Shown: positions 2,311 to 41,285, counted from the first letter of the stretch. The stretch is 64,000 nt of DNA from an uncultured Candidatus Saccharibacteria bacterium (GCA_964608605.1 CAZSOS010000001.1:207452-271451), one strand, 5' to 3'. A program made the numbers and translations. Notes: generated by a model not told the origin, from the letters alone.

Positions 2311-2352
2311 AGACACAAAAGGCCGGCCCCAAGGGGCCGGCCTTTTGTGTCT
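2311..2352. terminator. bidirectional intrinsic terminator (GGCCGGCCCC-AA-GGGGCCGGCC hairpin flanked by ACACAAAA / TTTTGTGT)
   Basis: Perfect GC-rich inverted repeat with A/T tracts on both sides, lying between convergent genes. Confidence 0.7.
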
Positions 2353-2375
2353 AATACCAGTCTGACTAGTATATC
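2351..2375. repeat. AGTC-N-GACT palindrome family copy (ATACCAGTCTGACTAGTAT)
   Basis: Near-perfect palindrome immediately 3' of the gyrB terminator. Related copies at 8670, 29995, 6531 and 41265. Confidence 0.6.
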
Positions 2376-2377
2376 TG

Positions 2378-3130
2378 CTAGCGCACGTTCACGCGAGTCC
2401 GGAAGCTGTTATTCGAGCGATCGGAGTCAGAACCGCCTTCGACGGTCACGCCGACGTATTCCGAACCACGGGTCTCCGAAGCTCCGAAGACCACGGTCAA
2501 GGTGGCGCTTTCCTGAGGCTTCAGGGGGGCCTGCGACTTCGAGGTCATGCTAGAACCGTTAGGCAGCTCGGCAACGAACGTCCAATCGGACGAGGTCTTG
2601 GTGCCAAGGTTCTTCACCACGAACTGCATGGCGCCATTGTCGCGGCGAGACAGCTCGTCAGCGGCGACGAAACGGCCGGCAGAGTTCATGTAACCAACAG
2701 CTGAGAAGCTTACCGAAAGATCGGTGTGGCCCTTAGGATCGGAAACCGGGGTCTTGTAGGTGACCACAGTCTTCCACTGCACCGGCGTGGAAGTAGCGGG
2801 CTTGGAAACGACCGGAGTGATCGGGGCCGGAGTGGTGGTAACGGTCGAGGTCGCCGTCACTGCCGGAGTAGTGGTGGTAGCGGCCGGCGGGTTGGTGACC
2901 ACGATCTCATTATCGCCCTCGATCACGACAGTGTCGTTATCGTCATCATTGTCGGTCAACCGATCTTCATAGTCGCGCTGGTTGGCTTCGAAGATGTTGG
3001 CCAGGGAAGAGAAGGCGGTCGGGAGAAAACGTACTGCCTGCACGGCCAACCAGGCCAAGAGGCATACCATCACCACGAAGCCGATCACGGCCATCACGCG
3101 AAGCATCTGCTCGTTTCGTTCGTTGTTCAT
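2378..3130 (-). CDS. membrane-anchored Thr/Pro-rich surface protein (hypothetical)
   Basis: Likely start MNNERNEQ. N-terminal TM/signal anchor (VMAVIGFVVMVCLLAWLAV), acidic DNDDDND segment, T/P-rich linker (TTTTPAVTATSTVTTTPAPITPVV) and a beta-rich C-terminal domain. Confidence 0.55.
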   Translation of the reverse strand: MNNERNEQMLRVMAVIGFVVMVCLLAWLAVQAVRFLPTAFSSLANIFEANQRDYEDRLTDNDDDNDTVVIEGDNEIVVTNPPAATTTTPAVTATSTVTTTPAPITPVVSKPATSTPVQWKTVVTYKTPVSDPKGHTDLSVSFSAVGYMNSAGRFVAADELSRRDNGAMQFVVKNLGTKTSSDWTFVAELPNGSSMTSKSQAPLKPQESATLTVVFGASETRGSEYVGVTVEGGSDSDRSNNSFRTRVNVR

Positions 3131-3281
3131 AAATAAAATTCGATTAATCCTTATATGATACATGTTTTTAATGATTTGTCAAGGACGCTATCGTCGCGTT
3201 AAGTCAATGCCCGGCGGGTGGATATCCACCATCGCTTGGGCCCGGAGGGTAGGGGGCAGGTGGTCAGACGCGCCACCAACC

Positions 3282-3309
3282 TTGACAAATTACCTATTTC
3301 GTGTATTAT
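3282..3309 (+). promoter_or_regulatory. sigma70-like promoter TTGACA-N16-TATTAT followed by ATATAAGGA
   Basis: Read directly from the sequence upstream of the sortase start. AAGGA lies 8 nt before the ATG. Confidence 0.5.
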
Positions 3310-3324
3310 ATAAGGATCAAACCT

Positions 3325-4002
3325 ATGGATCTCTCCCGATTCTTCAACGAAATAATGCCGCGAATGAGCGCTTTCTTAGGCGTCTTCTTCGTGGTCATGA
3401 TGATCGGCTACGGCTTTCTCTATTTCATCGACTTCGTGCCCGAGGCCCCGACCGATAACGAGGCCAAGAAAGCCGAGGAAACCGCTTCAGTCATAGAGGA
3501 AGAACCGGCGGCAGCGCAGCCGGTCATCGAGGAAACCCCTACCGTGGCTATAAATAACGATCCTTTCCCGATCAGTATCTCTCTTAGCCCTCTAGATCGC
3601 ACCGTGACCGTCCTTAATCCCGCCTCCCGCAGCGTGGCCGATCTGGATGCCGCCTTGCTTAAGGGCGTGGTGCGCCACCCGGACTCGGCCGATCTCAACG
3701 ATGAACAGGGAAATATCCTTATTCTCGGCCATTCCAGTTACCTAAAGAACGTCTTCAATAAGAACTACCAGGCCTTCAACGGCATCCAGAACCTCAAATG
3801 GGGCGATACCATCACCCTCAAGTCGAGCGACATGGAATACACCTACCGCGTGGATAGGGTATACGAGGCCAAGGCTAGCGCCGTCATGGTGCCCACCAAG
3901 GCCAGCCAGGCCAAACTCACTCTGGCCACCTGCGATACTTTCGGCGCCAAGGAAGACCGCTTCATCGTCGAAGCCACTCTGGTATCCAAAAAGCCCCTAT
4001 AA
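3325..4002 (+). CDS. sortase family transpeptidase
   Basis: N-terminal TM anchor, catalytic His in ILILGHSSY and the TLXTC Cys motif (KLTLATCDTFG) typical of sortases. Confidence 0.8.
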   Translation: MDLSRFFNEIMPRMSAFLGVFFVVMMIGYGFLYFIDFVPEAPTDNEAKKAEETASVIEEEPAAAQPVIEETPTVAINNDPFPISISLSPLDRTVTVLNPASRSVADLDAALLKGVVRHPDSADLNDEQGNILILGHSSYLKNVFNKNYQAFNGIQNLKWGDTITLKSSDMEYTYRVDRVYEAKASAVMVPTKASQAKLTLATCDTFGAKEDRFIVEATLVSKKPL

Positions 4003-4145
4003 ACGGGGCTTTTTGGATGCTTGACAAAAAGACCCAAATATGCTAAGATGGTAGATAAGTAGGTTTCGGGAGTATAGTGCTTCCAAACCACCTCGTACCT
4101 TCATCAGTTCCTCAGGATTCGGTTCAAAACAGAAAGGAGCGCGTC

Positions 4146-4571
4146 ATGCGCCACATCATCCTCTCCGCCTTCGGCCTCCTGGCCGCGCTCATCATCTTCG
4201 CCTCATTCGGCGGCATCAACACCGCCGAAGCCGGACAGTACTGCAAGTCGGCCTCCACCTGCAAGGCGGAAGTCGCAGCCCTGACCAGAAGCCAGGACGC
4301 CGCGGCCCGCGGCGCGCAGTGGAAGGTCGGCCAGTCCAGCTGCCGCTCGGCGGCCGAACAGCAGAAGGCCAATGAGCGCCGCTGCCGAGCCTTCGACGCC
4401 AAATGGGGCGGCAAGACCCTGGAAGAATGCGCGCGCTGCTATCGGCAGGTCCGTGAGGACATCCGCCGGTGGGAAGCCTGCCACAAGGCTTCGGGGGGCA
4501 TCGTCCCGCCGCCGCCCGCGGCGATCTACGCTTCGCTGGCTCGCCTCGGCCAAATGGCCGGTTCGTTCTGA
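4146..4571 (+). CDS. small secreted Cys-rich protein (hypothetical)
   Basis: RBS AAAGGAG before the ATG. Signal peptide MRHIILSAFGLLAALIIFASFGGINTAEA, 8 Cys, Pro-rich tail PPPPAA. Confidence 0.5.
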   Translation: MRHIILSAFGLLAALIIFASFGGINTAEAGQYCKSASTCKAEVAALTRSQDAAARGAQWKVGQSSCRSAAEQQKANERRCRAFDAKWGGKTLEECARCYRQVREDIRRWEACHKASGGIVPPPPAAIYASLARLGQMAGSF

Positions 4572-4575
4572 ACTG

Positions 4576-4613
4576 AAAAAAGTGGTCGCGGATGATTCAT
4601 CCGCGACCACTAA
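4576..4613 (+). terminator. intrinsic terminator
   Basis: AGTGGTCGCGGATG-ATTC-ATCCGCGACCACT hairpin flanked by A/T runs. Confidence 0.6.
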
Positions 4614-4701
4614 AACATTCATTATGGATGTTGGCGACGAAACCATGTTTCGTCTTCATTATCCGGAATGATCCGGTAGTTACAAATTCTATCAATTATT
4701 T

Positions 4702-6381
4702 ATGAAAAATTTTATCAATACCAAGGTATTCCTCTTTGGCATCATCGCTGCCTCTACCGCAGCGGTCATGGTTTTTGTGGTCATACCTCAGTTTCCTCAG
4801 GTTAACAGTTCTATCGATGGCCTCAGCACTTCTATCGACAAGGTAGAGGCCTGGGGTGATTGGTCTGGTTCCGGAGACTACGGTTCCGGTTGTTGCGACT
4901 ATACCGGTGATAGTTATGATACTGGATGGGGCGACTGGTCTGGCACCGGCGACTATGGTTCCGGTTGTTGTGACTCCACTAGCGGTGGCGGCTACGGCGG
5001 AAGTTACACTCCTTCCACCCCCTCTACTCCAGACACCCCGACTTACACGCCTCCGACCTACGTTCCGCCTCCGACTCCGGCAGCCGTCTGTCATTATTTG
5101 ACAGCTAGTGCCTCGTCGGTGAAGTACGGCGGTGATACTGTCTACCTCTCATGGAGCACTAGCAACGCTGGATCGGTCTCGATCAGCGGCATCGGTAGCG
5201 TGGCCGCGAGTGGTAGTAACCACCCGGTATCCGTCAGCTCTGACACCACGTTCACTCTGACCGCCACTTCGGCCGGAGGCAACGGTTCTTGCGCCGTCAC
5301 TATCACGGTTCAGCCGCCTTTGGCCGCCGTTTGTAACTACCTTAATTCCAGCCACGTGAACGTGCCCGTCGAGGGCGCTACCGTGACCCTCTCCTGGTCG
5401 ACCACCAACGCTAGCTCGGTCTCGATCAGCGGCGTCGGTAACGTCTCTCCAGTGAATCAGGGACAGGTCAATGTCTTCGTTAGCGGTAACCGCACCTTCA
5501 CTCTGACCGCGGTCGGAACCGGAGGCAACGGTTCCTGCACCGTCTCTATCGGTACGAACATCACCAATAAGGATATCCCTCGCTGCGAATACCTGCGCGC
5601 CAACGTTGGCAACAACGTCAAGCGTGGCGATCGGATCACCCTTACTTGGGCGACCACCAACGCTGACATGGTCCACATCAGCCCGATGCCGGGAGGCGTC
5701 TCCCGCAACGGCTCCGAGACCGTGATCCTCGAGAACGACGTCAACACCTTCACTCTGACCGCTCGTAACTTCCAGACCAACAACGAAGCTACCTGTACGG
5801 TGACCGTGCGCGTCGATAAGGAGGACAAGACCCCTACCTGCGACCTCAAGGTCTCCAAGTCCCGCGTCAACCGCGGCGAGAAGGTAACCCTTTCTTGGAA
5901 GACCACCGACACCGAGGGTCTCCGCATCCGCGACGACCAGGGAAAGACCATCTTCGACATCTCGCACTACAGCGTCTCTGAGCGCCGCCACTACAAGACC
6001 GGCGAAGTGGACGTCATCGTCAACCGCAACACCGAGTTCATCATGAACGTTCGCGGTGAAGACAACTCCAGCCGCACCTGCCGCGTCGAGGTTACCGTTG
6101 GCGGACTCGAAGTCTACGAGAAGCGCGATCAGGGATACGTCATCGCTTTGACCCAGGTGCCTTACACCGGATTCGAAGCTGGCGCCTTCCTGACCTTCCT
6201 CTTCTACGCGGTATTGACCCTCTGGGCTCTCTTCATCGCTTACGTGCTCGTCATCAAGAAGGGCACTGTGCTTGGATTCTCTCTCTACGGCGCTACCGCC
6301 GGCTTGAGCGAGACCGACGTGGAGAACCGAAAAAAAGTAGAAGCGCTGGTAGCGAAGTACAGTGGACAGAACCAGAAGTAG
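4702..6381 (+). CDS. surface protein with Cys-rich tandem repeats, four Ig-like repeats and a C-terminal PYTG-TM-KKG segment
   Basis: N-terminal signal anchor, 2x GDWSG(S/T)GDYGSGCCD repeat, P/T linker, four ~85-aa repeats each bounded by Cys, then QVPYTGFEAG plus a hydrophobic stretch and KKG. Confidence 0.75.
   Translation: MKNFINTKVFLFGIIAASTAAVMVFVVIPQFPQVNSSIDGLSTSIDKVEAWGDWSGSGDYGSGCCDYTGDSYDTGWGDWSGTGDYGSGCCDSTSGGGYGGSYTPSTPSTPDTPTYTPPTYVPPPTPAAVCHYLTASASSVKYGGDTVYLSWSTSNAGSVSISGIGSVAASGSNHPVSVSSDTTFTLTATSAGGNGSCAVTITVQPPLAAVCNYLNSSHVNVPVEGATVTLSWSTTNASSVSISGVGNVSPVNQGQVNVFVSGNRTFTLTAVGTGGNGSCTVSIGTNITNKDIPRCEYLRANVGNNVKRGDRITLTWATTNADMVHISPMPGGVSRNGSETVILENDVNTFTLTARNFQTNNEATCTVTVRVDKEDKTPTCDLKVSKSRVNRGEKVTLSWKTTDTEGLRIRDDQGKTIFDISHYSVSERRHYKTGEVDVIVNRNTEFIMNVRGEDNSSRTCRVEVTVGGLEVYEKRDQGYVIALTQVPYTGFEAGAFLTFLFYAVLTLWALFIAYVLVIKKGTVLGFSLYGATAGLSETDVENRKKVEALVAKYSGQNQK
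4850..4990 (+). repeat. intragenic ~78-bp tandem repeat encoding GDWSG-GDYGSGCCD
   Basis: Two near-identical DNA units (tggggtgattggtctgg... / tggggcgactggtctgg...). Confidence 0.7.
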
Positions 6382-6512
6382 TCTGTCAGATCCCCACGAT
6401 CTGCCCGACCAAGGTCTACGAGCTTCCAGCGCCTACCGAGGATAGGCCAGAGCCTTACATAACCTATTATCACGACGATACTCCCCCGAACTTGCCTATA
6501 GGCGAGAAGCCC

Positions 6513-6547
6513 GACTACTTGAAGTAGTCCCACAAGTCAGACTTGTG
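6513..6547. repeat. two adjacent palindromes GACTACTTGAAGTAGTC and CACAAGTCAGACTTGTG
   Basis: Perfect odd palindromes 3' of the surface-protein gene. The second shares its core with 41265. Confidence 0.6.
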
Positions 6548-6567
6548 TAGACGGGCGGGAGCGAGAA

Positions 6568-6598
6568 AAAGCCGGACCATTTGGTCCGGCTTTTTCGT
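6568..6598. terminator. bidirectional intrinsic terminator
   Basis: AAAAAGCCGGACCATTTGGTCCGGCTTTTT. Confidence 0.75.
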
Positions 6599-6603
6599 TT
6601 TTG

Positions 6604-6742
6604 TTCTGTCATGATCGTATCATGAGAATCACTGGGCCATAGATCTTCATGATATCATCAATGATATCATGAAAAGGGCCGAGCAGATCGATCGCGTTCA
6701 CTGCGCCATGAAAAGACTAGGCGGATGATCTTACATGACAGA
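6604..6742. repeat. terminator-flanked module with clustered TCATGA palindromes and a 9-bp terminal inverted repeat (TCTGTCATG / CATGACAGA)
   Basis: Four TCATGA and two CATGA(A/C) sites within ~130 bp. The module is bounded by the terminators at 6568 and 6770. Confidence 0.4.
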
Positions 6743-6769
6743 ATATATTTATAGCACTCATCGTCCAAG

Positions 6770-6802
6770 ACAAAGGCCGGCCCCTTCGGGGCCGGCCTTT
6801 GT
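6770..6802. terminator. bidirectional intrinsic terminator
   Basis: CAAAGGCCGGCCCCTTCGGGGCCGGCCTTTG. Confidence 0.75.
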
Positions 6803-6821
6803 CTTGCCTCTGTGGCATCCG

Positions 6822-8564
6822 CTAAAGCGAACGCGCGGATACCTTGACTTTCAAGTAGTCAGCCAGCTCGTCGGCACTGTGCTCCAGCTTGCTGCCATCG
6901 CTCATTTCCAGGGTCAACTGTCCAGACTCGGCCTCCTTGTCGCCGATGACCACGAAGGCCGGGATCTTCTGTTGCTTCACCGCCCGGATCTTCTTGCCCA
7001 AGGACTCGTTGGCGTCATCCAGCATACATCTTATACCGGCCGCCTTGAGCTTCGCGTAGAGCTCGCGCGCCGGGTCATTGTGCTTCTCCGAGACCGGCAG
7101 GATGGCTACCTGCTCTGGTGCCAACCACAGCGGAAAGCGGCCGCCTAAGTGTTCGATCAAGACGGCCGAGAAACGCTCGATCGAACCCATGATGGCGCAG
7201 TGGATCATGACGATACGCTCTTTTTCGCCCGCCTCATTGATACAGGTGAGATCGAAGCGCTCCGGCAGGTTCATGTCGAGCTGGATGGTGGCCACCTGAT
7301 GCTCGCGGCCGATGGAATCCTTGGCCATGAAGTCGAGCTTGGGGCCGTACATGGCCGCTTCGCCAGGAGCTTCGAAGTAATCGGCCTGGCGCTCGCGAGC
7401 GATGTCACGGAGCGCGTTCTCGGCGTTATTCCAGATCTCTGGGGTGCCCAAGTACTTCTCCATCTCCGACGGTTCGTGGAAGGAGAGCCGGACTCGGAGC
7501 TTGAAGCCGAAGGTACCGTAGAAGGTGTCGACAATGTCCCAGATGCGGAAGAACTCTTCCTTAACCTGTCTGTGACGGCAGAACACGTGGCTATCGTCCT
7601 GAGTGATCGAAAGTACGCGGGTGAGACCGCCCAGCTCGCCTGACTGTTCGTCGCGATAGACCATGGTGGTCTCGGCGTAGCGTTGCGGCATCTCGCGATA
7701 GCTGTGCGGCTTGCGGTCGAAGATCTGCGTGTGGTGCGGACAGTTCATCGGCTTTAAAGCGTACTCCTTGCCCTCGCGGGTACTGATGCGAAAGAGTTCG
7801 TCGGCGAACTTCTCCCAGTGTCCGGAGGTCTCGTAGAGGTCCTTCTTGGTGATGTGAGGGATGGTGACCCGCTGATAGCCATGACTTTCCCGGAGCTCCC
7901 AGATGTAGGAATCAAGAGCGTGGCGCAAGACCGTGCCCTTAGTGGTCCAAAGCGGCAATCCGGCGCCGACCAGATCGGAGAAAGTGAAGAGATCGAGTTC
8001 CTTGCCGAGCTTGCGATGGTCGCGCTCTTTGGCTTCGGCCAGCTGCTTTTCGTAGGCTTCAAGCTCGTCTTTGGTCTCGAAGGCCAGGCCATAGATACGA
8101 GTCAACATGGCGTTCTGTTCGTCGCCGCGCCAATAGGCGCCGGCCACCTTGGTGAGCTTGAAGGACGCCGGGTCGATGTCCGCGGCCGGATTCTCACTAT
8201 GTCCGCCGCGACAGAGGTCCTCGAAGTCGCCGCTCTTGTAGAGAGTGATGGTCTCCCCGCTGTTCGCGATCTCCTCTATAAGCTCTAGTTTGTAGGGATT
8301 GCCCGCGAAGATGGTCCTGGCCTCCTCGGCCAAAACCTCGCGGTGAGAGAACTCCTTCCAGGCCGGCAATAGCTTCCTCATGACCTTCTCGATGGCCGGC
8401 AGATTGGCGTCGCCAACCGGTTCGCCTCCTTGGAAGTCGATGTCATAGTAAAAGCCGGTGTCGACGGCCGGACCGATGGTCAATTTGGCGTGCGGATATT
8501 TCTGCAGCACCGCCGCCGCCAAAAGGTGGGCAAGAGTGTGGCGTTTATGTTCGAGGTTGGACAT
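6822..8564 (-). CDS. thrS: threonyl-tRNA synthetase
   Basis: 580 aa with class II aaRS core and anticodon-binding domain, ThrRS-specific motifs, and the N-terminal HxxxH editing-like second additional domain. Confidence 0.95.
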   Translation of the reverse strand: MSNLEHKRHTLAHLLAAAVLQKYPHAKLTIGPAVDTGFYYDIDFQGGEPVGDANLPAIEKVMRKLLPAWKEFSHREVLAEEARTIFAGNPYKLELIEEIANSGETITLYKSGDFEDLCRGGHSENPAADIDPASFKLTKVAGAYWRGDEQNAMLTRIYGLAFETKDELEAYEKQLAEAKERDHRKLGKELDLFTFSDLVGAGLPLWTTKGTVLRHALDSYIWELRESHGYQRVTIPHITKKDLYETSGHWEKFADELFRISTREGKEYALKPMNCPHHTQIFDRKPHSYREMPQRYAETTMVYRDEQSGELGGLTRVLSITQDDSHVFCRHRQVKEEFFRIWDIVDTFYGTFGFKLRVRLSFHEPSEMEKYLGTPEIWNNAENALRDIARERQADYFEAPGEAAMYGPKLDFMAKDSIGREHQVATIQLDMNLPERFDLTCINEAGEKERIVMIHCAIMGSIERFSAVLIEHLGGRFPLWLAPEQVAILPVSEKHNDPARELYAKLKAAGIRCMLDDANESLGKKIRAVKQQKIPAFVVIGDKEAESGQLTLEMSDGSKLEHSADELADYLKVKVSARSL

Positions 8565-8566
8565 GA

Positions 8567-8880
8567 TCGAGAGGATGAATTGATAAATGGGAACGAAAAG
8601 CGCCCGGGCAAAAATTCAGGTGTCTGAATTTTTGCCCGGGCGATCTTGATCGCGGTTCCACCGGACTTCCCGTTATACTAGTCAGACTAGTATAACGGCT
8701 TATTGGACAGATTAGGCTTAAAAGCGTCCTTCGACCCATGGGTGGTAGCCACGGCAATCTCTGTTGTAAACATCATAACCGCTAGACCGCGGTCGTCAAC
8801 CCCGTTAGAGGGTACTGGCATATACCCGCAATAGACTAGTAGGTCATTAAGCACCCTGAACAGGGCTCTCTAACGGGGTC
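8567..8880 (-). promoter_or_regulatory. putative T-box leader (tRNA-Thr responsive) of thrS
   Basis: On the minus strand, GGTGGAACCGCG matches the T-box core GGUGGNACCGCG. It sits 10 nt upstream of a strong terminator hairpin (8599-8641) followed by CTTTTCG, ~30 nt before the thrS start. A long stem I (CCCCGTTAGAGAG...CTCTAACGGGG) has an ACC triplet at the 3' side of its internal loop. Confidence 0.55.
8670..8698. repeat. 29-bp perfect palindrome CCGTTATACTAGTCAGACTAGTATAACGG
   Basis: Lies inside the thrS leader. Same core as copies at 2351 and 29995. Confidence 0.7.
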
Positions 8881-11800
8881 AATAGCTTCGCGTTATCTAA
8901 GAGGATGGTCGGCTGGTCATTGCGCAGCTGCAACTTGCCCTTGACCGCCACGCAGGCGGCCGGCCGCAACACGTCCTGGAGCGCACGGTAGGTCTCGGGG
9001 AAGGCGGTCATCTCGATCTGATGGGTATGATCGACGAGCTGGATAAAGGCCATCTTGTCGCCCTTCTTAGTAAGGAGCTCGCGCACGCTTTCCACCATGC
9101 CGGCAGTGACCACACCGCCTTTCATGCGCACCACGTTGATCTCTTCCTTGTTATTGACCGCGTTCACGATCGCCCCGATCGGGATCCGCGGCGGCTTATT
9201 GAGCTCGCCTTGATACTGATCGAGCGGATGACCGGACACGTAGACGCCTAGCAGCTCCTTCTCCCAGGATAATTTCTGCGCGTCGAGGAGAGGAGCGACC
9301 GGATCGAGGCGGAGGGAGGCGGCGGCGAAGCCGCCGCCGAAAAGCGACTCCTGCGACGCCTCCTTGGCCGAGACTTCCGCCTTGTTGAAGGCGAGCAGAT
9401 TGTCGATATTTCCATACATGAGACCGCGGTCCTCGAACCGGTCCAAGGCGCCAGTCTGGATCAAGGCTTCAAGCGATTTCTTGTTCAGGTTGCGGTCGTG
9501 CACGCGGGAAAGGAAGTCGGCCAAAGAAGCGTACGGACCGTTCCGCTTCCGTTCCTCGATGATGGCTTCGGCAATGCCTTCGCCGAAATTCTTGATGGTG
9601 GTGAGACCGAAGCGGATCTTCTCCGTCCCCGGCACCACGGAGAAGTCGGCGAAGGATTCGTTGATGTCCGGCGGCAGGACTTCTAGTCCCATACGCTCGC
9701 ATTCGTGGATGATCTCGGAGATCTTCTCGGTGTCGCCCGAGTCGGCGGTCAAGACCGCCGACATGTATTCGACCGGATAGTTAGCCTTCATATAGGCCGT
9801 CTGGTAGGCCACGCGGCCGTAACTGGCGGCGTGCGCCTTGTTGAAGCCGTAAGCGGCGAACGGCTCGATCAATTTCCACAGCTGATCGGCCTTTTGAGGC
9901 GTAAGCTTGCCTTTCTCCACGAAGCCCTTTAAGAGCTTCTCCTTCTCGGCCTCCATCACCTCCGGGATCTTCTTACCCATGGCCTTGCGGAGCTTGTCGG
10001 CGTCGAGCCAGGAGTATCCGGCCAGGGTAATGGCCGTCATCATGACGTCGTCTTGGTAGGTGATCACGCCATAGGAGCGATCGAGGATGGTCTCGAGCCG
10101 GGGGTCGAGATACGAGACCAGGGCCGGATTATGCTTGCGCTCGATGTACTGCGGGATCGACTCCATCGGGCCCGGGCGATAGAGAGCCACCATGGCGTTG
10201 ATGTCGTGGATGGTCGACGGCCGGAGCTGCTTCAAGAAGGCCGTCATGCCGGTGCCGTTCAGCTGGAACAGGCCCATCGTCTCGCCGCGCGCCAGCATCT
10301 CGAAGGTCAGCTTGTCGTCGAGCGGAATGTTCTCGATGTCCACCTCGATGCCGCGGATCTTGCGCACGCGCCGGACGGCGTCAGCCAGGATGGCCAGGTT
10401 CTTGATACCCAGGAAGTCGAACTTGAGGAGTCCGACGCCGTCCTCGCCGACCGAGCGCATCTCGTATTGAGTGATCAGCTTGCCGGTCTTCGGGTCGGGC
10501 TGCACCGGCACGAAGTGATTCAAGGGTTCCGGCGCGATGACGACGCCGGCGGCGTGCACTCCCAGGTGCCGCACGCGTCCTTCGATCATCTTCGCCAAGT
10601 CGATCACCTCGCGCACTTCCGATTCGCCCTTGTATATCTTAGAGAGCTCCGGCTCGATCTCCAGAGCCTTCTTGATGGTCATGGGAAAGCCCTGGCTGCC
10701 CATGGGGATCAGCTTGGCCACCCGGTCGCCGACCGAGTATGCGTGGCCCAAGGCTCGGGCCACGTCGCGCACGGCGGCACGGGCCATCATGGTGCCGAAG
10801 GTACCGATCTGCGCCACCTTGTCCTCGCCGTACTTCTCTTTGGCGTACTCGATGATCTCGTCGCGCCGATTATCGGCGTAGTCCATGTCGATATCGGGAG
10901 CCGAAGGGCGCTCCGGGTTCAAGAACCGCTCGAAGGGAAGCTTGTATTCAAGCGGATCCACGTTGGTGATGCCCAAGACGTAGGTAGTGAGACTGCCGGC
11001 CACCGAACCGCGGATGGTTGTCAGGATCGCGCGTTCCCGCGCCTCGCGCAGCAGGTCGCCCACCACCAGGAAGTACTTGGCGTAGCCCTTCATCTTGATG
11101 ACCTCGAGCTCGTAGTCGAGGCGGGTCTTCACCTCAACATCATCGAGTGACAGCCCGCGCCAGGCGACTCCTTTGTAGGCCAGTTCCTTCAGCTCATCGT
11201 CCGGCTCCTGGCCGCTCTCGATGATGTAGTTAGGGAAGTACCAGACCGTGCCGATGGGGATCTCCACGTTGCAGGCCTCGGCCACCTTCACCGTGTTAGC
11301 GACCGCTTCCGGCACGTCGGCCATCCGCCGCTTCATCTCCTCTTGAGTGAGGAAGGAAAAGTCCTCGGCCTCATCCAGCGCGCCGCTTAAGTCCACCACG
11401 CCGCCGTTTTGGATCTTCACCATGGTCTCGCGGGCCACGCGGTCTTCCGGACGCAGATAGTACACGTCGTGCGCCGCCAAAAGCGGCACGCCCGTCTTCC
11501 GGGCTAGTTCCTTTATCCTCTCCTGATTCTCGTTATGATCGAGGATCTCCGGATGGTTCGTGATCTCCAAGTAGCAATCCTCGCCGAACACTTGCCGGTA
11601 CCAATCCAGGCGCTCGCCGGCTCTCTCGGCGTTCCTATCCTTCAAAGCCTGCGCCACCTCGCCGGCGAAAGAGGGAATGATGGCGATCAGGTCCTCCCGG
11701 TGGCGTTCCAGAAGCTCTTGGTCAAGACGGGGTCGATAGTAGAAGCCGTCGATGTAGGAACGGGTGACCAGCTCGATCAGATTACGGTAGCCGTTGTTGT

Positions 11801-22799: not shown

Positions 22800-23015
22800 C
22801 CTTGCCAAAAATCCTATTTTCTGCTATGTTTTATCCACTTGCGATTTGGGGGTGATTGTGTTGCGGTTGTCCGCTTCCAAATCTAGGTGGGTGGGGGACG
22901 GAAAGATCATAGGCCTATGATCTTTCCGTCCCAAGATAGACATCTGGGGAATGTTTATTTCTATAAAATAACCGCAAAAAATTAACTAACGGCACTTCGT
23001 GCCGGCTTTTGCGTG
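22800..23015 (+). other. structured intergenic region upstream of rpoB (possible leader RNA or small ncRNA)
   Basis: Putative promoter TTGCCA-N17-TATGTT (~22803-22832). Perfect 19-bp-stem hairpin GGGACGGAAAGATCATAGG/CCTATGATCTTTCCGTCCC (22886-22925). Second hairpin CCGGCACTTCGTGCCGG followed by CTTTTG (~22993-23015). Confidence 0.35.
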
Positions 23016-29994: not shown

Positions 29995-30017
29995 TATACT
30001 AGTCAGACTAGTATAAG
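29995..30017. repeat. 23-bp perfect palindrome TTATACTAGTCAGACTAGTATAA
   Basis: 11 nt after the rpoC stop and just before the terminator at 30027. Confidence 0.7.
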
Positions 30018-30026
30018 AGAAAGAAA

Positions 30027-30060
30027 AAGCGGGCGGCCCCTTCGGGGCCGCCCGCTTTTT
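30027..30060 (+). terminator. intrinsic terminator
   Basis: AAAAAGCGGGCGGCCCCTTCGGGGCCGCCCGCTTTTTT. Confidence 0.8.
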
Positions 30061-33586: not shown

Positions 33587-33599
33587 TATGAACATGATA

Positions 33600-33640: not shown

Positions 33641-33646
33641 CACCGG

Positions 33647-33814: not shown

Positions 33815-35509
33815 TTAAGTGGTTAGTCCGATAGACTTAAGAGCCTCCTCGGTCCGAGCGGTGAAACGGCCAGACTCTTTGACGCGGGTAAACTGCGGCA
33901 GCTCTTGAAGCTCATGCCACACCTGCTCGCTGGCAGAAGAGACGTACACCTTCTTGCCGCGCCGTTCCAGCTCTTCGACAGCCTCGCCCAGCATTTCCTG
34001 ACCTTCGAAATCAGCGGCCAAAAGACCCCGCAGGCGAATGATGACATACTCCACGTTCTCAGCGCGGGCGATGCGGCGGAAGTTGTCAGCGTGACGGCCG
34101 CTATCGACGTAACCCAAAAGACCGGAGATGCTGTAAGTCAGAATCTTGATCGATCGATCAGACGGGATCTGGAGACTCTTGGCTCCGCGGACGGCAGACT
34201 TCGAGCCGTCAACGTAATTGAAGACGGCGTCGAAGCGACCGCGGCTCACCTGATCGGTGAACCAGAAGAGGGCCATGACGGCTCCCAAGACCACTGCAAT
34301 GCCAGCGTCCTCGAAGACCGTTACCAGAACCACCGTGATGGCGATGACGAAGCTGGGTTTTTCGGAAACGTAGAATTCCTTGAACTTGTCCACCTCAATT
34401 AGACCAAGTGCGGTGTTGACCAGAATGGCGGCGATGACCACCATCGGTATATAGATGAAAAGCGGTAGCACGATCACGGCTACTACGGCAGTGGCCACGG
34501 CGGCCACGGCGGCCGACATCTTGTGGGTGGCGCCAGCCTTGATGTTGGCTCCGGTGCGAATGAAGACACCCGTGGCTGGCAAACCGCCCATGGCGCCGGA
34601 ACCGAGATTCGCTAACGCCAGGCCAAAAAGCTCCTTGCGGCTGGACGACTGCGTCTTGGTGATCTTGTCGGCGATCTTAGCGGTGATAAGGGTCTCCAAG
34701 ACCGCGATAAGAGCGATGGTACCGGCTACCTTGAAGAGCCAAACTATCATTTCACCATCGGACAGTATCCGCGAAAGAGCGTCCCAGGCCACCGGCATCA
34801 TGAGGGCGCCCGATACCGAACCGAACTTATCGCCAAGCGATATCAACCCTAGATCCAGATACTGCGATTCGAAGTAACCAAAGAGGATACCGACGACCGA
34901 GATCGGGATGACCGCCGGGAGCGCCTTGATGTAGCGTTTCCAGATCAGAATGGCCGCCAGGAAGACCGCGAAGACGACGACCGACTCCAGGTGAGTCTCC
35001 GCCGCGTGAGCCACGTATAGCTTGATATCACCAAGGAAATGGCCGGTGCGCTTGAGAGCCGAGAGGCCGGTGGCGTCAAACAGCTGCGAAGCGGCTATCA
35101 GGAAGGCTACGCCGGCGGCGAAACCGTACATCACCGAAGAAGGAATGAAATAAAGATACTTATCCAAACCCAAAAGCCAGATGAGCAGGATCAAAAAACC
35201 GGTGGCTAGCGCCAGAAGCGGCAGCACGGCGGCTCCCAGGCCTAAGGGCGCGGCCAAAGTAGCGGCGAAAAGGACGGTCGTCAAAGCGCCGGCGGCGCCG
35301 ATGATGTTGTAGTTGTTGCCGCCGAAGATGCTGGCGATCAAGGTGGCCCAGATGCCGGTAATAAGACCAGGGATCGGACCAGCGCCCGAAGCGATCGAGA
35401 GCGCGATCGAGAGCGGCACGGAAATGAGCGCCACCGTCAGTCCGGCGCGCCAGTTCTGCTTTATCAGTTCGGAAATTTGGGCTGGATTGGGAATGGAAAA
35501 GGATTTCAT
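33815..35509 (-). CDS. SulP-family anion permease with C-terminal STAS domain
   Basis: Likely start MKSFSIPNP. Multiple TM segments with the SulP signature, and a STAS domain at the C-terminus. Confidence 0.85.
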   Translation of the reverse strand: MKSFSIPNPAQISELIKQNWRAGLTVALISVPLSIALSIASGAGPIPGLITGIWATLIASIFGGNNYNIIGAAGALTTVLFAATLAAPLGLGAAVLPLLALATGFLILLIWLLGLDKYLYFIPSSVMYGFAAGVAFLIAASQLFDATGLSALKRTGHFLGDIKLYVAHAAETHLESVVVFAVFLAAILIWKRYIKALPAVIPISVVGILFGYFESQYLDLGLISLGDKFGSVSGALMMPVAWDALSRILSDGEMIVWLFKVAGTIALIAVLETLITAKIADKITKTQSSSRKELFGLALANLGSGAMGGLPATGVFIRTGANIKAGATHKMSAAVAAVATAVVAVIVLPLFIYIPMVVIAAILVNTALGLIEVDKFKEFYVSEKPSFVIAITVVLVTVFEDAGIAVVLGAVMALFWFTDQVSRGRFDAVFNYVDGSKSAVRGAKSLQIPSDRSIKILTYSISGLLGYVDSGRHADNFRRIARAENVEYVIIRLRGLLAADFEGQEMLGEAVEELERRGKKVYVSSASEQVWHELQELPQFTRVKESGRFTARTEEALKSIGLTT

Positions 35510-35586
35510 GGCGCGTTGATTAATTTTATAAGAAGATCCCCCGGATCCCTGGACATGGTCCAAGGATCCGGGGGCAGCGAGCGGCC

Positions 35587-36270
35587 TTAGGCCGCGACGC
35601 GGTTTGCCGATCTTTCGACGAGACGTTCTCCGATCATATCGACGACGGAGTTGAATATCTCGTCCAGGAAACGATAAGGCTCGAAGATGACGCCCACCTG
35701 GCCGGTTTCCGGCTTGAAGTAGTCGGTGATGATGCGTTCCTCCTTGCGAATGAAAGCATGGCACTTCTCGACTGACAGATCCGGCATCTCGCGTTGCAAG
35801 TAGTCGGTCATGGCGTCGATATCGGAACGCGTGATGAAGTACTCGGGTGGGCTGATGCCCTGCTCGAGAACCCGCAGCCTGACCAGGCCGTGATGCATGC
35901 TGATCGCCGCTTCGTCATCCTCCCGGTTCTCGCCGATGACCGCGGTGGCGTAGAGCACGCCATTGAGGCCATACCCATCGACCACCACGACGTCATGCGC
36001 GCGCAAAGCCGGCAGCAGCCGCTTCATGTTGAACTCGTTGAGCATCTTCCAACAGTCGATGAGCCGACTGGTGGGCTCGAGCTCGCGCTCTTGGTGCGCC
36101 CACAACAGCGGGTGCGGCAGGGCGCCGAACGGGTCCTCAAAAAAGGCGAATGTGTGATCCCTGAAAATTCCAGGGAGCGCAGATTCGAGTCTCTTGAAGA
36201 GTCGGGTGCGGCCAGAACCCCTCATGCCGGAAATGGCGAAAAAAGAACAATTATTCCCCGACAATGTCAA
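35587..36270 (-). CDS. thymidylate kinase-like P-loop protein with atypical catalytic motifs
   Basis: The layout aligns to Tmk (P-loop, REPGG-like EDPFG, DRY-like DGY), but P-loop Lys is Arg (GMRGSGRT) and DRY Arg is Gly. TTG start is uncertain (the SD abuts it). Confidence 0.5.
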   Translation of the reverse strand: MTLSGNNCSFFAISGMRGSGRTRLFKRLESALPGIFRDHTFAFFEDPFGALPHPLLWAHQERELEPTSRLIDCWKMLNEFNMKRLLPALRAHDVVVVDGYGLNGVLYATAVIGENREDDEAAISMHHGLVRLRVLEQGISPPEYFITRSDIDAMTDYLQREMPDLSVEKCHAFIRKEERIITDYFKPETGQVGVIFEPYRFLDEIFNSVVDMIGERLVERSANRVAA

Positions 36271-36418
36271 CCTCCTTGGGTTTGTCGTGATTCTGTCGAT
36301 ACCTTTCGGTACCGACGGTGAAGAATGATACTCTTCTCAGCGCCGCTGTCAAAGGCGGTTGTGCACAACCCTGCCAATACCCTGGCCAAAAAAGTAGCGC
36401 GGACTGGGTGTTATAATC

Positions 36419-36871
36419 ATGAACATGAAACACCAAGCCTCGAAGTCCGTGGTGGTGGCCGGGATCATCACCGATGAACAGGATCGAGTCCTGATAGTCA
36501 GGCCCGCCCATAAGGATGGTTGGATATTCCCAGGCGGGTACGTGGAAGTAGGGGAAGCGCCCAGCGAGGCCTTCGAACGAGAGATGGAAGCCGAACTGGG
36601 AACGAAGCCCGCGCGGCTGCCGCGGCTTCTAAGCATCGATTACCGCGGCGATAACGAAGAGTACGTGATGTTCTTGTTCGACGGCGGTGTCTTCACGGCT
36701 GATATGATCGGTAGTATAGTGTTGCCTCCGGGTTTGCTGGAACATAGGTTCGTCACCCCGGAAGAAGCTTTAACAATGCTGCGTCCGAACAGCGCCCGAC
36801 GTCTCTTGCCCACGCTCGAGGCTCGCTCGCGTACCGGTATCGCGTATCTGGAAAATCAAGAACTCCTGTAA
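36419..36871 (+). CDS. Nudix hydrolase
   Basis: Canonical Nudix box GGYVEVGEAPSEAFEREMEAELG. Confidence 0.85.
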   Translation: MNMKHQASKSVVVAGIITDEQDRVLIVRPAHKDGWIFPGGYVEVGEAPSEAFEREMEAELGTKPARLPRLLSIDYRGDNEEYVMFLFDGGVFTADMIGSIVLPPGLLEHRFVTPEEALTMLRPNSARRLLPTLEARSRTGIAYLENQELL

Positions 36872-36975
36872 GTCGTTTCGATAATTGATAACGTATCGAA
36901 TGGGTTTGTGGGTGTTTTTGCCTTCTGGGCGAATAATCTAATCAAGACTCGAAAGTCTATAAACGATCAAATCTT

Positions 36976-38247
36976 ATGGCAGTCATAGCTGGCATCATCT
37001 TCGTGGTGGGTTACGTCCTGATCACGCTCGAGCATAGTTGGAAGATAAACAAGTCCGTGACGGCTACCGCCTTAGCGGCCATCTTATGGGCCCTGATAGC
37101 CTTCTCTGGCATAGACGCGCACATGGTCGAAGAAGAGCTGCATCATATTTCCGGTGAGACTTTTTCTCTGGTGGTGTTCCTGCTGGCGGCCATGACCCTG
37201 GTGGAGATACTGGTCCACTACCGTTTCTTCGATCTCCTGCGATCCAAACTCTTCGCGCTTGGACTCCAGGACACCGGTCAGCTGGTATTGATATCGATCA
37301 TTACTTTCTGTCTGTCAGCCATCATCGATAACCTCACCACGACCATCGTGATGATCCAGATCGCTCGTCGATTCTTTAAAGGAACTAACCTGCTGGTGGC
37401 GGCCGGATCCATCGTGGTGGCCGCCAATGCCGGGGGCGCGTTCTCACCGGTCGGCGACGTTACCACCATCATGATCTGGCTGGCAGGTAAATTTACCGCT
37501 TGGCAGGTGATGTTATGGGGGATACTGCCGTCAATAACCATCACCGGAGTGGCCACGTATCTATTCACCCGGCAAATTACTGGCACCACCGACGATGAAC
37601 GTCCCACGGACGAAGTCGTGAACTTGAATCTGTCAGACAAGGTCGTCATAGCCATGTCCTTTGGATCTTTCGGGCTGCCGCTCATGGCTCACCTAGCCGG
37701 ACTGCCACCTTTCATGGGTCTTTTATTCGGCGTCGGTCTGGTCGGTCTGACGATCGGTCTCTTCGCCAACGCTGGAAAGCGGCGCGAATCACATCTATCC
37801 ATGGAGATCGAGAAACTACTTGGCCGTGTCGACATCACCAGTCTGCTATTCTTCATCGGTATCTTGTTCGCGGTCGGCGCGCTGGGATTCCTGGGAATAC
37901 TGGATAACATCTCGCAGACCCTGTTCGGTGAAGACCCGTCTGATCTTCGTTTGATCGCCGGCAGCGTGCTTCTAGGAGCTTTTTCAGCGCTGGTCGATAA
38001 CATCCCCCTGACTGCCGCAGCCTTGGACATCCTTCAAACCACGGACTTCCGTCTATGGGTTTTGTTGGCCCTTTGCGTCGGCACGGGCGGTTCGATGCTG
38101 ATCATTGGTTCGGCGGCGGGAGTGGTCGCCATGGGCATGGTCAAGGAGCTGACCTTCAAGCAGTTTCTTAAGATCGCCACCATCCCCGCCGCCCTTGGAT
38201 ACGTAGCGGGTATCAGCGTGTGGTACGTCCAGTATCTAGTGCTTTAA
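36976..38247 (+). CDS. ArsB/NhaD-superfamily ion transporter permease
   Basis: 423 aa with ~10-12 TM segments and an internal repeat typical of the ion transporter (IT) superfamily. Confidence 0.7.
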   Translation: MAVIAGIIFVVGYVLITLEHSWKINKSVTATALAAILWALIAFSGIDAHMVEEELHHISGETFSLVVFLLAAMTLVEILVHYRFFDLLRSKLFALGLQDTGQLVLISIITFCLSAIIDNLTTTIVMIQIARRFFKGTNLLVAAGSIVVAANAGGAFSPVGDVTTIMIWLAGKFTAWQVMLWGILPSITITGVATYLFTRQITGTTDDERPTDEVVNLNLSDKVVIAMSFGSFGLPLMAHLAGLPPFMGLLFGVGLVGLTIGLFANAGKRRESHLSMEIEKLLGRVDITSLLFFIGILFAVGALGFLGILDNISQTLFGEDPSDLRLIAGSVLLGAFSALVDNIPLTAAALDILQTTDFRLWVLLALCVGTGGSMLIIGSAAGVVAMGMVKELTFKQFLKIATIPAALGYVAGISVWYVQYLVL

Positions 38248-38308
38248 GGATCGACACTGTCGTTTCGGGACGACTACCAGACGGCTTAATTTGTTATACT
38301 GACCCAAT

Positions 38309-41257
38309 ATGCAAAGAGAGCGGGAGGCGGGCGCAGCGTTCAATGAAGCGTACGCTTCATTGAACGCTGCGCAGAAACAGGCGGTGGACGCCATCGATGG
38401 CCCCGTCATGGTCATCGCCGGACCAGGGACAGGGAAGACGCAGATATTGGCGCTTCGGATCGCCAACATCCTCCTTAGGACCGATGCTCGGCCCGAGAAT
38501 ATCCTAGCTTTGACCTTCACCGACGCGGGTGCCAGCGCCATGCGCGAGCGGCTCCGCCGCTACCTGGGAGAAAGGGCCTACAAAGTGGCCATCCATACCT
38601 TCCACAGCCTCGCGGGCGAATTCATTCGGCGTTATCCCGATTGCTATCCCGGCATCATCGGCGGTCGGCCGGCCACCGACATCGAAAGGTTCTCCATCAT
38701 CGAGAGCATCATCGAAAGCGGCGGCTTCGTGGCCCTCCGGCCTCAGGGGGACCCGCTTTATTACGTGCGCAAGCTGCCAGGCGCGCTGGCCGATCTGAAG
38801 AAGGAGTACGTCACCCCCGACGTGCTGGCCGCCAGGATCGCTCATCTGGAAGAGCGTCTCGATCTGATGCCGAAATTCCACGAGAAAGGCGCCCACAAAG
38901 GCAAGGTGCGCGGCGAATACGGCCGGGAAGAGAAGCGCGTCATTAAACTAAAGGAACTGCTTCTGGTCTACCGCGCTTACCAAGCCGCGTTGCGAGAAAG
39001 GCGGCTCTTCGATTTCGAGGACATGATAGTGGAGACCGTGCGGGCGCTTCAGGACAACGAGGACATGCTGCGCGACCTGCAGGAGAGCTACCAGTATATC
39101 CTGGCCGACGAACATCAGGACGTGAACGAGGCCCAGAACAAGATCCTGGAACTGCTGGCTCATTTCCACGACCGGCCGAACATCTTCGCCGTCGGCGATG
39201 AAAAGCAGTCCATTTACCGCTTCCAAGGCGCCTCCCTCGACAACTTCCTTTACTTCGAAGACCGTTTCCCTGGGACCGAAGTCATAACCTTGACGGAGAA
39301 CTACCGCTCGACGCAGCCGATACTAGATCTAGCGCATCGGCACATCAAGAGCGACGACCCTGACCTGGCCAAACTGCGCGTGCCGCTTCAGGCGGGCCGC
39401 AGCTTCTCCTCCCCGGGCCGCCAGGAACTTCGCCGTTTCTCTCACGAAGCCGTCGAGGACGACTGGCTCATAGCGGAGGTAGAGAGACTCCTTAAGGCTA
39501 GGGTGCCAGCGGAGGAAATAGCCGTCATCGTCCGCTACAACCGAGACGTGGAGCATTTCGCCACGCTGTTGCGCCAACGCGATATCGACGTCAGCGCCTC
39601 GGCCGAAAGCGACATCCTGGATCATCCCATCACTAAGTCCACGGAGCAGCTTCTGATCGCCGCTTTGGAGGTGGACAATGAGACCGCTCTGTTCGACACC
39701 TTGCTAGGCGGCTGGTGGGGGCTTAAAGGAGGCGACCTGGCTCTAGCGCTCAGCGCCCGCTCCCATTCCCGTCCGCTGCGCCGCGTCATCGGAGACGAAG
39801 CGCTGCTCCTAGAGCTCGGCGTCGCCGACCCGGCCCCGATCCTCAGGGTCTCGCGCGTCCTCGAGTCCGCTAGAGATCTGGCGTCCACGACCGCACCGCA
39901 CCATTTGCTGCAGTCCCTATTTGAAGACAGCGGCTACCTCGACCACGTCATGTCGATCGACTCCATCGAAGGTGCCCGCGTGCTGCGCCGGCTTTATGAC
40001 GACATCGAATCCATGGTGGTCGAGGATCGCTCGACCACCGCGCGGGAAGTGCTTCGGCAGCTCCGCTACCGGCGCGATCATGGCTTAGCGCTCTCGGCCC
40101 CGTACATCGACGTCGACCAGACCGCCGTCCGGGTCATGACCGCCCACAAATCGAAAGGGCTCGAATTCCATACGGTGCTCATTCCGCGCGCCACCGACGC
40201 CGCTTTCGGCGCGTCCGACAAGAAGGACTATTTCAAACTGCCGCTGTCGGCACGGGAAACGGAAAGCGACCTGGAAGAGGAGGACGACCGTCGTCTGTTC
40301 TATGTGGCCATGACCCGCGCCAAGGAGAACCTGCTCATCTCCAGCTCCGAGACCGGCATCACTGGCAAGCACTGTGCCGCTAGCCGCTTCGCGGAAGCGC
40401 TGCCTCAAGGATCGATAGACGCCGTCTCCACTGCTGATGAAGAGGAAGACTTCGACCCGCTGCAGGCCTTGAAGGTCGGCCGACCCACTTTCACCGTCGA
40501 ACCCAAGTTCATCAAACAGCTCTTTCTGGCCCGCGGGCTGGCCGTCACCCACCTCAATAACTATCTGGAGGATCCGTTGAAATACTTTTACGAGAACCTG
40601 CTGCGCCGACCGCAGCCGCAAAGCCTGTCTCTTATGAAAGGGAACGCCGTGCATGAGGTCCTGGACCAGGCCATGAGGCGGTTCATCCGGGAAAAGGAGT
40701 GGCCTGACACCTCGACGATCGCGCGCGCGCTCCATGACGCTCTGGCACGGCTACCGATCAGCACGGTCGACATCGCCCGCACCCACGAGACCTCTCTGGC
40801 CGCCCTGACGGTCTACCTAGAAAGGCTGCGCTCATTAGCCGACGAACATTCGCGTCCGGAGTCGTCCTTCAAGGTCGCGCTCAGGACCGACGACCCAGAA
40901 CTGCCGGAGATACCGCTGACCGGCAAGATCGACCGCGTGGACTACGACCCAGAAGGCCGGGTCCTTCGGGTCATCGACTACAAGACCGGAAAGCCCAAAA
41001 GCCGCAACGAGATCGAAGGCAAGACCAAGAACGCCACTGGCAACTACAAGCGGCAGTTGGCTTTCTACGCTCTGCTTCTAGAACTGCAAGGTCTGGAGAC
41101 GGCTGGAGTGGAATTTGTCCTGTCCTTCGTGGAACCTAAGGAGAAGACCGGGGAGATCCTCGAACATTCGTTCACCATCGAGCGGGAAGAAGTAGAGACC
41201 TTGAAGGCGGAGATACTGCGGGTATCTAAAGAGATAATCTCCGGAGAAAGATTCTAG
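38309..41257 (+). CDS. UvrD/PcrA-family DNA helicase with C-terminal PD-(D/E)xK RecB-like nuclease domain
   Basis: N-terminal Walker A AGPGTGKTQ, helicase motifs, and the C-terminal IDYKTGK...QLAFYALL nuclease motif. Confidence 0.85.
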   Translation: MQREREAGAAFNEAYASLNAAQKQAVDAIDGPVMVIAGPGTGKTQILALRIANILLRTDARPENILALTFTDAGASAMRERLRRYLGERAYKVAIHTFHSLAGEFIRRYPDCYPGIIGGRPATDIERFSIIESIIESGGFVALRPQGDPLYYVRKLPGALADLKKEYVTPDVLAARIAHLEERLDLMPKFHEKGAHKGKVRGEYGREEKRVIKLKELLLVYRAYQAALRERRLFDFEDMIVETVRALQDNEDMLRDLQESYQYILADEHQDVNEAQNKILELLAHFHDRPNIFAVGDEKQSIYRFQGASLDNFLYFEDRFPGTEVITLTENYRSTQPILDLAHRHIKSDDPDLAKLRVPLQAGRSFSSPGRQELRRFSHEAVEDDWLIAEVERLLKARVPAEEIAVIVRYNRDVEHFATLLRQRDIDVSASAESDILDHPITKSTEQLLIAALEVDNETALFDTLLGGWWGLKGGDLALALSARSHSRPLRRVIGDEALLLELGVADPAPILRVSRVLESARDLASTTAPHHLLQSLFEDSGYLDHVMSIDSIEGARVLRRLYDDIESMVVEDRSTTAREVLRQLRYRRDHGLALSAPYIDVDQTAVRVMTAHKSKGLEFHTVLIPRATDAAFGASDKKDYFKLPLSARETESDLEEEDDRRLFYVAMTRAKENLLISSSETGITGKHCAASRFAEALPQGSIDAVSTADEEEDFDPLQALKVGRPTFTVEPKFIKQLFLARGLAVTHLNNYLEDPLKYFYENLLRRPQPQSLSLMKGNAVHEVLDQAMRRFIREKEWPDTSTIARALHDALARLPISTVDIARTHETSLAALTVYLERLRSLADEHSRPESSFKVALRTDDPELPEIPLTGKIDRVDYDPEGRVLRVIDYKTGKPKSRNEIEGKTKNATGNYKRQLAFYALLLELQGLETAGVEFVLSFVEPKEKTGEILEHSFTIEREEVETLKAEILRVSKEIISGERF

Positions 41258-41264
41258 ATCATTT

Positions 41265-41285
41265 ACACAAGTCAGACTTGTGTAA
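41265..41285. repeat. 21-bp perfect palindrome TACACAAGTCAGACTTGTGTA
   Basis: 8 nt after the helicase stop and before the terminator. Paralog of 6531-6547. Confidence 0.7.

Follow-up and report, generated by a model that had tools for sequence, protein, structure and literature searches.

Five palindromes in the window and their setting

The 64-kb stretch of DNA described here (CAZSOS010000001.1, 207452-271451), which we call the window, carries the core genes gyrB, dnaE, thrS, rpoB/C, dnaG and hisS together with those for sigma-70, SMC, RNase III and RNase R. The closest rpoC proteins all belong to Patescibacteria (Paceibacterota, Parcubacteria and Kaiserbacteria), and judged by these relatives the window is core genome of a Patescibacteria bacterium of the Parcubacteria type. 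The subject of this study is a family of five short, odd-centred palindromes in the window, copies A to E, which are built around the 9-nt core AGTCWGACT and stand beside transcription terminators (Table 1). We compare them with the repetitive extragenic palindromes (REPs) of other bacteria and their REP-associated tyrosine transposases (RAYTs).

A preliminary description of the sequence had reported five such palindromes in two subfamilies, and all five were found. Their number lies far beyond chance, as the core matches five times in the window compared with 0.28 matches expected, and none of 100 shuffles reached five. All five matches carry longer palindromic arms and fall outside long open reading frames (ORFs); ACWAGTCWGACTWGT is exact in four of the copies and has one mismatch in the fifth. 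In the window as a whole, 12 odd-centred palindromes are perfect over arms of 8 nt or more, against a shuffle mean of 1.2. The copies are singlets, four of the five being perfect. Copy A is the 29-bp perfect palindrome that had been described, copy C is indeed degenerate (the 9-nt core is perfect and the arms have two mismatches), and copy D is present, 17 bp being its maximal perfect extent. The other two needed correction: copy B has the reported 23 bp but lies one base to the left of the reported 29995-30017, and copy E, reported as a 21-bp palindrome at 41265-41285, is present with a maximal length of 23 bp. As single-stranded DNA, the five copies are predicted to form hairpins with a C-W-G triloop and energies of -2.4 to -12.1 kcal/mol. 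The copies of subfamily 1 contain two ACTAGT sites each, so that five of the six ACTAGT sites of the window fall within palindromes, and subfamily 2 has none.

The association with terminators was confirmed for every copy. The neighbouring hairpins are GC-rich, with 12-19 pairs, and the gap between palindrome and hairpin is 0 nt for copy C, 6-7 nt for B, 17 nt for D and E and 27 nt for A; transcription reaches the palindrome before the hairpin in all five cases, so that it always lies 5' of the hairpin. The claim that each copy sits within 10-30 bp of a stop codon holds for copies B, C and E, at 2-9 nt, but not for copies D and A, which are about 150 nt from the nearest stop of a long ORF. Likewise, the trailing AACGG or GACGGG is seen as AACGGG or GACGGG after three of the five copies, but a comparison of flanks indicates that it is not general in the family.

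Table 1. Palindromes, terminators and thrS leader elements in the window
Feature	Position	Strand	Remark
Palindrome C, degenerate subfamily 1, GATATACTAGTCAGACTGGTATTAG	2351..2375	-	2 nt past the stop of ORF 2378-3163(-)
Palindrome D, subfamily 2, 17-bp perfect, CACAAGTCAGACTTGTG	6531..6547	+	17 nt 5' of a terminator
Palindrome A, subfamily 1, 29-bp perfect, CCGTTATACTAGTCWGACTAGTATAACGG	8670..8698	-	inside the thrS leader
Palindrome B, subfamily 1, 23-bp perfect, TTATACTAGTCAGACTAGTATAA	29994..30016	+	9 nt past the rpoC stop
Palindrome E, subfamily 2, 23-bp perfect, TTACACAAGTCAGACTTGTGTAA	41263..41285	+	5 nt past the stop of the UvrD/PD-(D/E)XK helicase gene
Bidirectional intrinsic-terminator hairpin between gyrB (+) and ORF 2378-3163 (-)	2313..2350		read from sequence
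Intrinsic terminator near copy D, 14-pair stem then T run	6565..6596	+	17 nt 3' of copy D
Intrinsic terminator 3' of rpoC, 17-18-pair stem, both strands	30024..30060		6-7 nt 3' of copy B
Terminator hairpin between convergent UvrD-like and DsbA-like genes	41303..41329		17 nt 3' of copy E
Putative thrS T-box leader	8565..8808	-	weak Rfam score; promoter-like site, T-box sequence, terminator
Sigma-70-like promoter of the thrS leader	8799-8772	-	promoter-like site
Attenuator/terminator hairpin of the thrS leader	8642-8601	-	27 nt 3' of copy A

One copy had been placed inside a putative thrS T-box leader. The palindrome (copy A) aligns to Stem III of the Rfam T-box model and is followed by a good T-box sequence, GGUGGAACCGCG, and the attenuator. 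Stem I is largely missing, and support for the T-box is weak, as the model reaches 26.5 bits (E = 4e-4 when 400 nt are searched) where the gathering score is 93. A candidate ACC-A specifier is legible in the leader sequence. The leader resembles a shortened T-box with a REP palindrome in place of Stem III. With a promoter-like site upstream of it and the T-box sequence and attenuator downstream, copy A belongs to the thrS leader and not to the 3' end of dnaE.

Five syntenic relatives were available for comparison, four of them with rpoC proteins of 91-93% amino acid identity (L077, L125, L128, L129) and one with about 80% nucleotide identity over rpoBC (L134). The terminator directly after rpoC is kept in all five and the one after the UvrD-like gene in L077, L129 and L134. 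No palindrome follows rpoC in any of the five or uvrD in those three, and the AGTCWGACT core does not occur in the 14-24 kb examined of each relative. Presence and absence of the palindrome thus differ among related genomes, as is the case for mobile REPs. Because the palindromes are missing at orthologous sites where the terminators have been kept, we regard them as lineage-specific insertions and not as conserved regulatory sites. The leading idea of the preliminary description did not withstand this comparison; it had seen in the palindromes a target of restriction-modification or a binding site, either for a nucleoid protein or for a factor acting in termination or antitermination.

Palindromes around RAYT genes in related contigs

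A scan of metagenomes with the query TAYACWAGTCWGACTWGTRTA, which covers both subfamilies, returned 47 loci. These include relatives of the window, such as L103, which is 78% identical to 51535-51846, and L107, which carries thrS. Many of the matches are likewise beside terminator hairpins or just past stop codons. By rough ORF calls, 17 sites lie between tandem, 8 between convergent and 7 between divergent genes, although these counts are noisy owing to spurious ORFs. The arms fall into families, among them TATACTAGTC, TACACAAGTC, TACACTAGTC and AGAGCAGTC, and the core is common to all. No target site, tag or duplication is conserved in 98 flanks.

At 13 of the 47 loci, a gene of the Pfam Y1_Tnp family (IS200-like transposase) coding for about 230 amino acids is found some 30 nt to a few hundred nt from the palindrome. 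The clearest arrangement is that of L086, where the ORF at 2163-2861 has TATACTAGTTAGACTAGTATA 7 nt before its ATG and, directly after its stop codon, TTATACTAGTCAGACTAGTATAA, the identical palindrome to window copy B. In L111 the gene stands between two inverted doublets. A protein search with the L086 enzyme yielded 601 homologues of about 230 aa, some of which bear source names such as 'REP element-mobilizing transposase RayT' or 'transposase [Patescibacteria group bacterium]'. Three further loci were retrieved through the protein alone and not through the palindrome, and each of these also has repeats at its RAYT gene: four copies of CCTTAGTCWGACTAAGG around the gene in L130, flanking doublets of AGAGCAGCCTGACTACTCT in L132 and flanking doublets of ATACACAAGTCTGACTTATGTA in L135. 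In all, the same repeat brackets the RAYT gene in six lineages (L086, the L111 group, L108/L097, L130, L132 and L135), each of which has its own palindrome arms around the same core, and the arms change symmetrically along with the lineage of the adjacent RAYT. A more distant RAYT with only 30% identity (L120) served as a control, and the palindrome at its flanks is unrelated.

Two observations on single contigs and one on the window may be added. The distant RAYT of L120 is bracketed by TGTGGGACGT..ACGTCCCACA at 1245-1275 and 1970-2000, and the same contig also carries a singlet of the TACACAAGTC type; one organism may therefore host two REP families. In L135 a dispersed perfect singlet, AATACACAAGTCAGACTTGTGTATT, lies 7.7 kb away from the gene and 12 nt past a stop codon, and its sequence is what results when the two units of the doublet are fused at the core and only their outer halves are kept. 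In the window, a second small palindrome, GACTACTTGAAGTAGTC, at 6513-6529 is immediately 5' of copy D and has GTAGTC/GACTAC ends that resemble the L132-type REP core.

In the enzyme itself, two histidines, H84 and H86 (the HUH motif), and the Y144-x3-K-N motif (K148-N149) are invariant in 38 RAYT sequences, and Y144, assigned by position, is the predicted catalytic tyrosine. Sequence-only searches of the PDB gave nothing but weak matches to ISDra2 TnpA (E = 0.03-0.14). The AlphaFold model of the protein has a pLDDT (predicted local distance difference test) of 90.4, and its top PDB match in a fold search is 4ER8, the E. coli REP-associated tyrosine transposase with bound REP (E = 2e-5), followed by ISDra2, IS608 and IS200 TnpA. 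The best NCBIfam family is REP_Tyr_transpos, ahead of IS200.

Since RAYT genes of related Patescibacteria contigs are bracketed by the same palindromes, we conclude that the palindromes of the window are probably REP-type repeats of a Patescibacteria-specific clade of RAYTs (HUH/Y1 enzymes with the IS200 fold), that is, a known kind of element in an unusual form. This reading is supported by what has been published on REPs, which are mostly found downstream of coding regions, between unidirectional and convergent ORFs, with some inside genes or providing stop codons (PMC3733652), and on RAYTs, which are HUH/Y1 enzymes whose gene occupies one species-specific locus, invariably with REP clusters on its flanks (PMC3479197); position, flanking and enzyme fold all agree here. 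A REP-like mobile palindrome was the second idea of the preliminary description, and it is the one that the RAYT loci favour. Its suggestion of a protein-binding site can be retained in a narrow sense, because a RAYT is expected to bind the palindromes, but not in the sense of a regulatory or nucleoid site. It was also fair in calling the palindromes no standard annotated feature: REPs seldom receive an annotation, and the literature searched yielded neither an account of REPs in Patescibacteria nor a paper linking RAYT or REPIN with this group. A literature search for the palindrome sequence gave nothing relevant.

A cognate RAYT gene, with these palindromes (TTATACTAGTCWGACTAGTATAA or TACACAAGTCWGACTTGTGTA) on both of its sides, would be expected in another part of the genome. 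On single-stranded DNA each repeat would fold into a hairpin with the family-wide core AGTC-W-GACT at the apex and a stem sequence specific to its RAYT lineage, and the enzyme would bind this hairpin and cut and rejoin single strands, seeding new copies. In this compact genome copies would survive in the few positions that are neutral. Most of these would be between a gene and the terminator that follows it, and one would be Stem III, a variable part of the T-box leader of thrS. Imperfect units arranged as doublets stand beside the RAYT gene in L111, L099, L132 and L135, whereas the window copies are singlets and four of them perfect. Perfect singlets could arise from such imperfect inverted doublets by joining of the outer halves at the cores; the singlet of L135 suggests how this might happen, joining by the enzyme and core-core slippage being indistinguishable in the sequence.

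The position of the copies raises the possibility that they work as RNA hairpins in 3' untranslated regions and leaders, protecting mRNA 3' ends, tuning termination or offering a site to RNase III or another protein. On the sense strand, transcription passes through each of the five copies before it meets a terminator, copy A occupies Stem III of a T-box, and the predicted hairpins are stable; moreover, REPs have been reported to be probably transcribed and to act as RNA elements (PMC3733652). The copies are, however, not conserved in relatives that have the same genes and terminators, their centre base is A or T irrespective of orientation, they bracket RAYT genes on both sides and also occur upstream of start codons (L060, L103), and the phage copies described below fall within ORFs. 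We consider an RNA function as the primary explanation improbable. If the hairpins do act on mRNA or on the T-box, this could be a secondary use of REPs (an exaptation) and need not compete with the REP reading.

The distinct RAYT clade found here shows that even the streamlined, ultra-small Patescibacteria, with genomes of about 1 Mb, harbour elements of this kind. The approximately 600 homologues, each lineage with its own palindrome around a shared core, provide a natural series of enzyme-hairpin pairs for studying how Y1 enzymes read DNA. The REP reading also explains a class of unannotated palindromes beside terminators that are open to being mistaken for regulatory sites. The palindromes break assemblies as well, many of the RAYT contigs being only 1-3 kb long.

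Phage copies and other readings of the palindromes

The inner 17-mer, TACTAGTCWGACTAGTA, is also present in 54 IMG/VR stretches from uncultured tailed phages (L001-L054) and in L059. In IMG/VR the symmetric T..A form accounts for about 62 of about 70 sites, and the remaining arm combinations that fit the pattern do not rise above background. Phage MW202545.1 (L137/L138), a complete genome of 57,457 bp, has 8 copies, to which 16 of its 17 ACTAGT sites belong. About half of the phage copies fall within ORFs, where the peptide is almost without exception T-S-Q/L-T-S, from the one frame that lacks stops on either strand. Sites that recur are the spacers before the large terminase subunit (separating it from the small one) and behind it, a linker within a ParB-like protein, and the C-terminal ends of the portal protein and a small protein; copy number at these sites varies between related contigs. 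No RAYT homologue was found in the viral contigs searched or in MW202545.1, and the palindromes are absent from Caulobacter phage RLK, the cultured relative. In L119 a phage-like replication module (VapE-like, VRR-NUC, SNF2) includes an intergenic array at 2634-2930 with at least eight half sites, TTACACAAGT, in direct and inverted orientation around one full palindrome, an arrangement that resembles iterons or an origin.

A tentative extension of our reading, which we think rather unlikely, is that this RAYT clade reads and probably cuts the apex AGTC-W-GACT instead of a GTAG foot, and that its repeats also reach phage genomes; alternatively, a protein common to phages and bacteria might read the palindrome. 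Were host RAYTs indeed to insert REPs into the DNA of infecting phages, these REPs would form a direct molecular record of which phage infects which of the Patescibacteria and a new source of in-frame peptide insertions in phage proteins, and they could be used to match phages of uncultured bacteria with their hosts.

Another proposal is that the palindromes are double-stranded operators for a dimeric protein, be it a roadblock or termination helper, a nucleoid organiser of the KorB/ParB or MatP type, or a GntR-type regulator. Perfect symmetry, an odd centre and a length of 13-17 bp are typical of dimer sites, and the pattern T-N-GT-NNN-AC-N-A fits TAGTCAGACTA. The iteron-like half-site arrays of L119, the phage tandem pairs spaced 27-38 bp apart and the two copies inside a ParB-like gene would agree with such a site. 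Nevertheless, the palindromes are not conserved at orthologous positions, they are downstream of genes and not at promoters, no candidate regulator was recognised among the window ORFs scanned, and the arms vary symmetrically with the adjacent RAYT lineage while the core stays fixed. We therefore give an operator little credence. The more specific idea of a ParB/KorB-like centromere or operator, which the two copies in the phage ParB-like gene had suggested, was dropped for the window after the link to RAYTs was found, and no ParB was seen among the window ORFs scanned.

The density of ACTAGT in the palindromes, both in the window and in MW202545.1, could point to a target for restriction-modification or methylation or to a DNA-uptake sequence. 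In Neisseria, uptake sequences are often arranged as inverted pairs that serve as terminators, and competence genes are present in Patescibacteria. The preliminary proposal of a methylation target at ACTAGT is contradicted by subfamily 2, which lacks the site, as do the L130 and L132 families. One copy per 13 kb is far below the density of known uptake sequences, and hardly any of 185,579 species genomes (a collection that does not include the source genome) contain the exact 17-mer, with 22 stretches in total. Most of these are unrelated Prevotella ACTAGT repeats coding for Thr/Ser, and only one is from Kaiserbacteria and one from a phage-like contig. In the rumen Prevotella metagenome-assembled genomes (L055-L076), the 17-mer occurs within runs of ACTAGT-NNN repeats that are read as Thr-Ser-X linkers, which looks like a different phenomenon. 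Restriction-modification or uptake is scarcely credible as the origin of the palindromes.

Several observations weigh against the REP/RAYT interpretation. No RAYT was detected in the 64-kb window, either by tblastn or by a hidden Markov model run on the six-frame translation. The density of copies is modest, five per 64 kb, and all are inside the first 41 kb. REP_Tyr_transpos scores of 42.3, 29.4 and 25.4 bits are below the NCBIfam cut-off of 80. The identical 17-mer is common in phages without a RAYT, which makes a binder or function independent of RAYT conceivable. Classical REPs have GTAG at the foot of the hairpin and a bulged stem (PMC3479197) and come in doublets, whereas the dispersed copies here are perfect singlets with no GTAG/CGTC tag or other conserved flank (CGT is found in 11 of 98 flanks).

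Some further features of the window lie outside the AGTCWGACT family. A 42-bp perfect even palindrome at 38331-38372 falls within the first approximately 20 codons of the UvrD/PD-(D/E)XK helicase ORF, and its right arm appears to encode an LNAAQ-type motif at the N-terminus of the helicase. Other perfect palindromes are at 50068-50108 (41 bp), 43264-43291 (28 bp) and 22895-22932 (38 bp), two of them within long ORFs. Just downstream of the tRNA-Ala and tRNA-Pro genes (59962-60158), Rfam matches a group I intron at 60667-60962 (+) with 53 bits against a gathering score of 50, and the GC content goes down to 42% over 60-64 kb.

Comparison with known systems

KorB operators, the 13-bp odd-centred palindromes of plasmid RK2, and the 'stoperators' of L5 are likewise short and scattered close to the ends of genes, and those of KorB share their odd-centred symmetry with the window palindromes. 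They are, however, conserved regulatory sites on double-stranded DNA that have no link to a transposase and do not vary among close relatives. The Rickettsia palindromic elements and intragenic REPs recall the phage 17-mer, which sits in frame inside genes as the short, tolerated peptide T-S-Q/L-T-S. The Rickettsia elements are 100-150 bp long, compared with an insert of 15-17 bp here, and the phages that carry the 17-mer encode no transposase.

The enzyme fold and catalytic motifs are those of the IS200/IS605 family (Y1 TnpA of IS608 and ISDra2) and of its gene-less derivatives, the palindrome-associated transposable elements (PATEs), and the IS200/IS605 enzymes likewise recognise subterminal hairpins on single strands. 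There the mobile unit is a whole insertion sequence with distinct left and right ends, whereas here a gene-less palindrome of 17-29 bp is dispersed and the same palindrome stands on both sides of the gene (L086, L130). An IS200/IS605 insertion sequence as such was rejected for the window, which has five palindromes and no tnpA.

The closest parallel is the REPtron, in which REPs, bacterial interspersed mosaic elements (BIMEs) or REP doublets forming hairpins (REPINs) are associated with a RAYT, as in E. coli, Pseudomonas and Stenotrophomonas. Work on REP/RAYT systems has dealt almost exclusively with Proteobacteria, in which they are regarded as replicators that live within the bacterial genome, persist for long and are inherited vertically. 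Several differences set the present elements apart: a 9-nt palindromic core at the hairpin apex, common to all lineages, takes the place of a tetranucleotide at the foot; the RAYT has about 230 aa compared with 165 aa for the E. coli enzyme and falls below the NCBIfam equivalog cut-off; and the host has the ultra-small genome of Patescibacteria. Both have many short extragenic palindromes mostly just 3' of genes, a gene for an HUH/Y1-fold transposase bracketed by the same repeats, inverted doublets at the RAYT flanks, and repeats that are specific to a lineage and vary in presence and absence among relatives.

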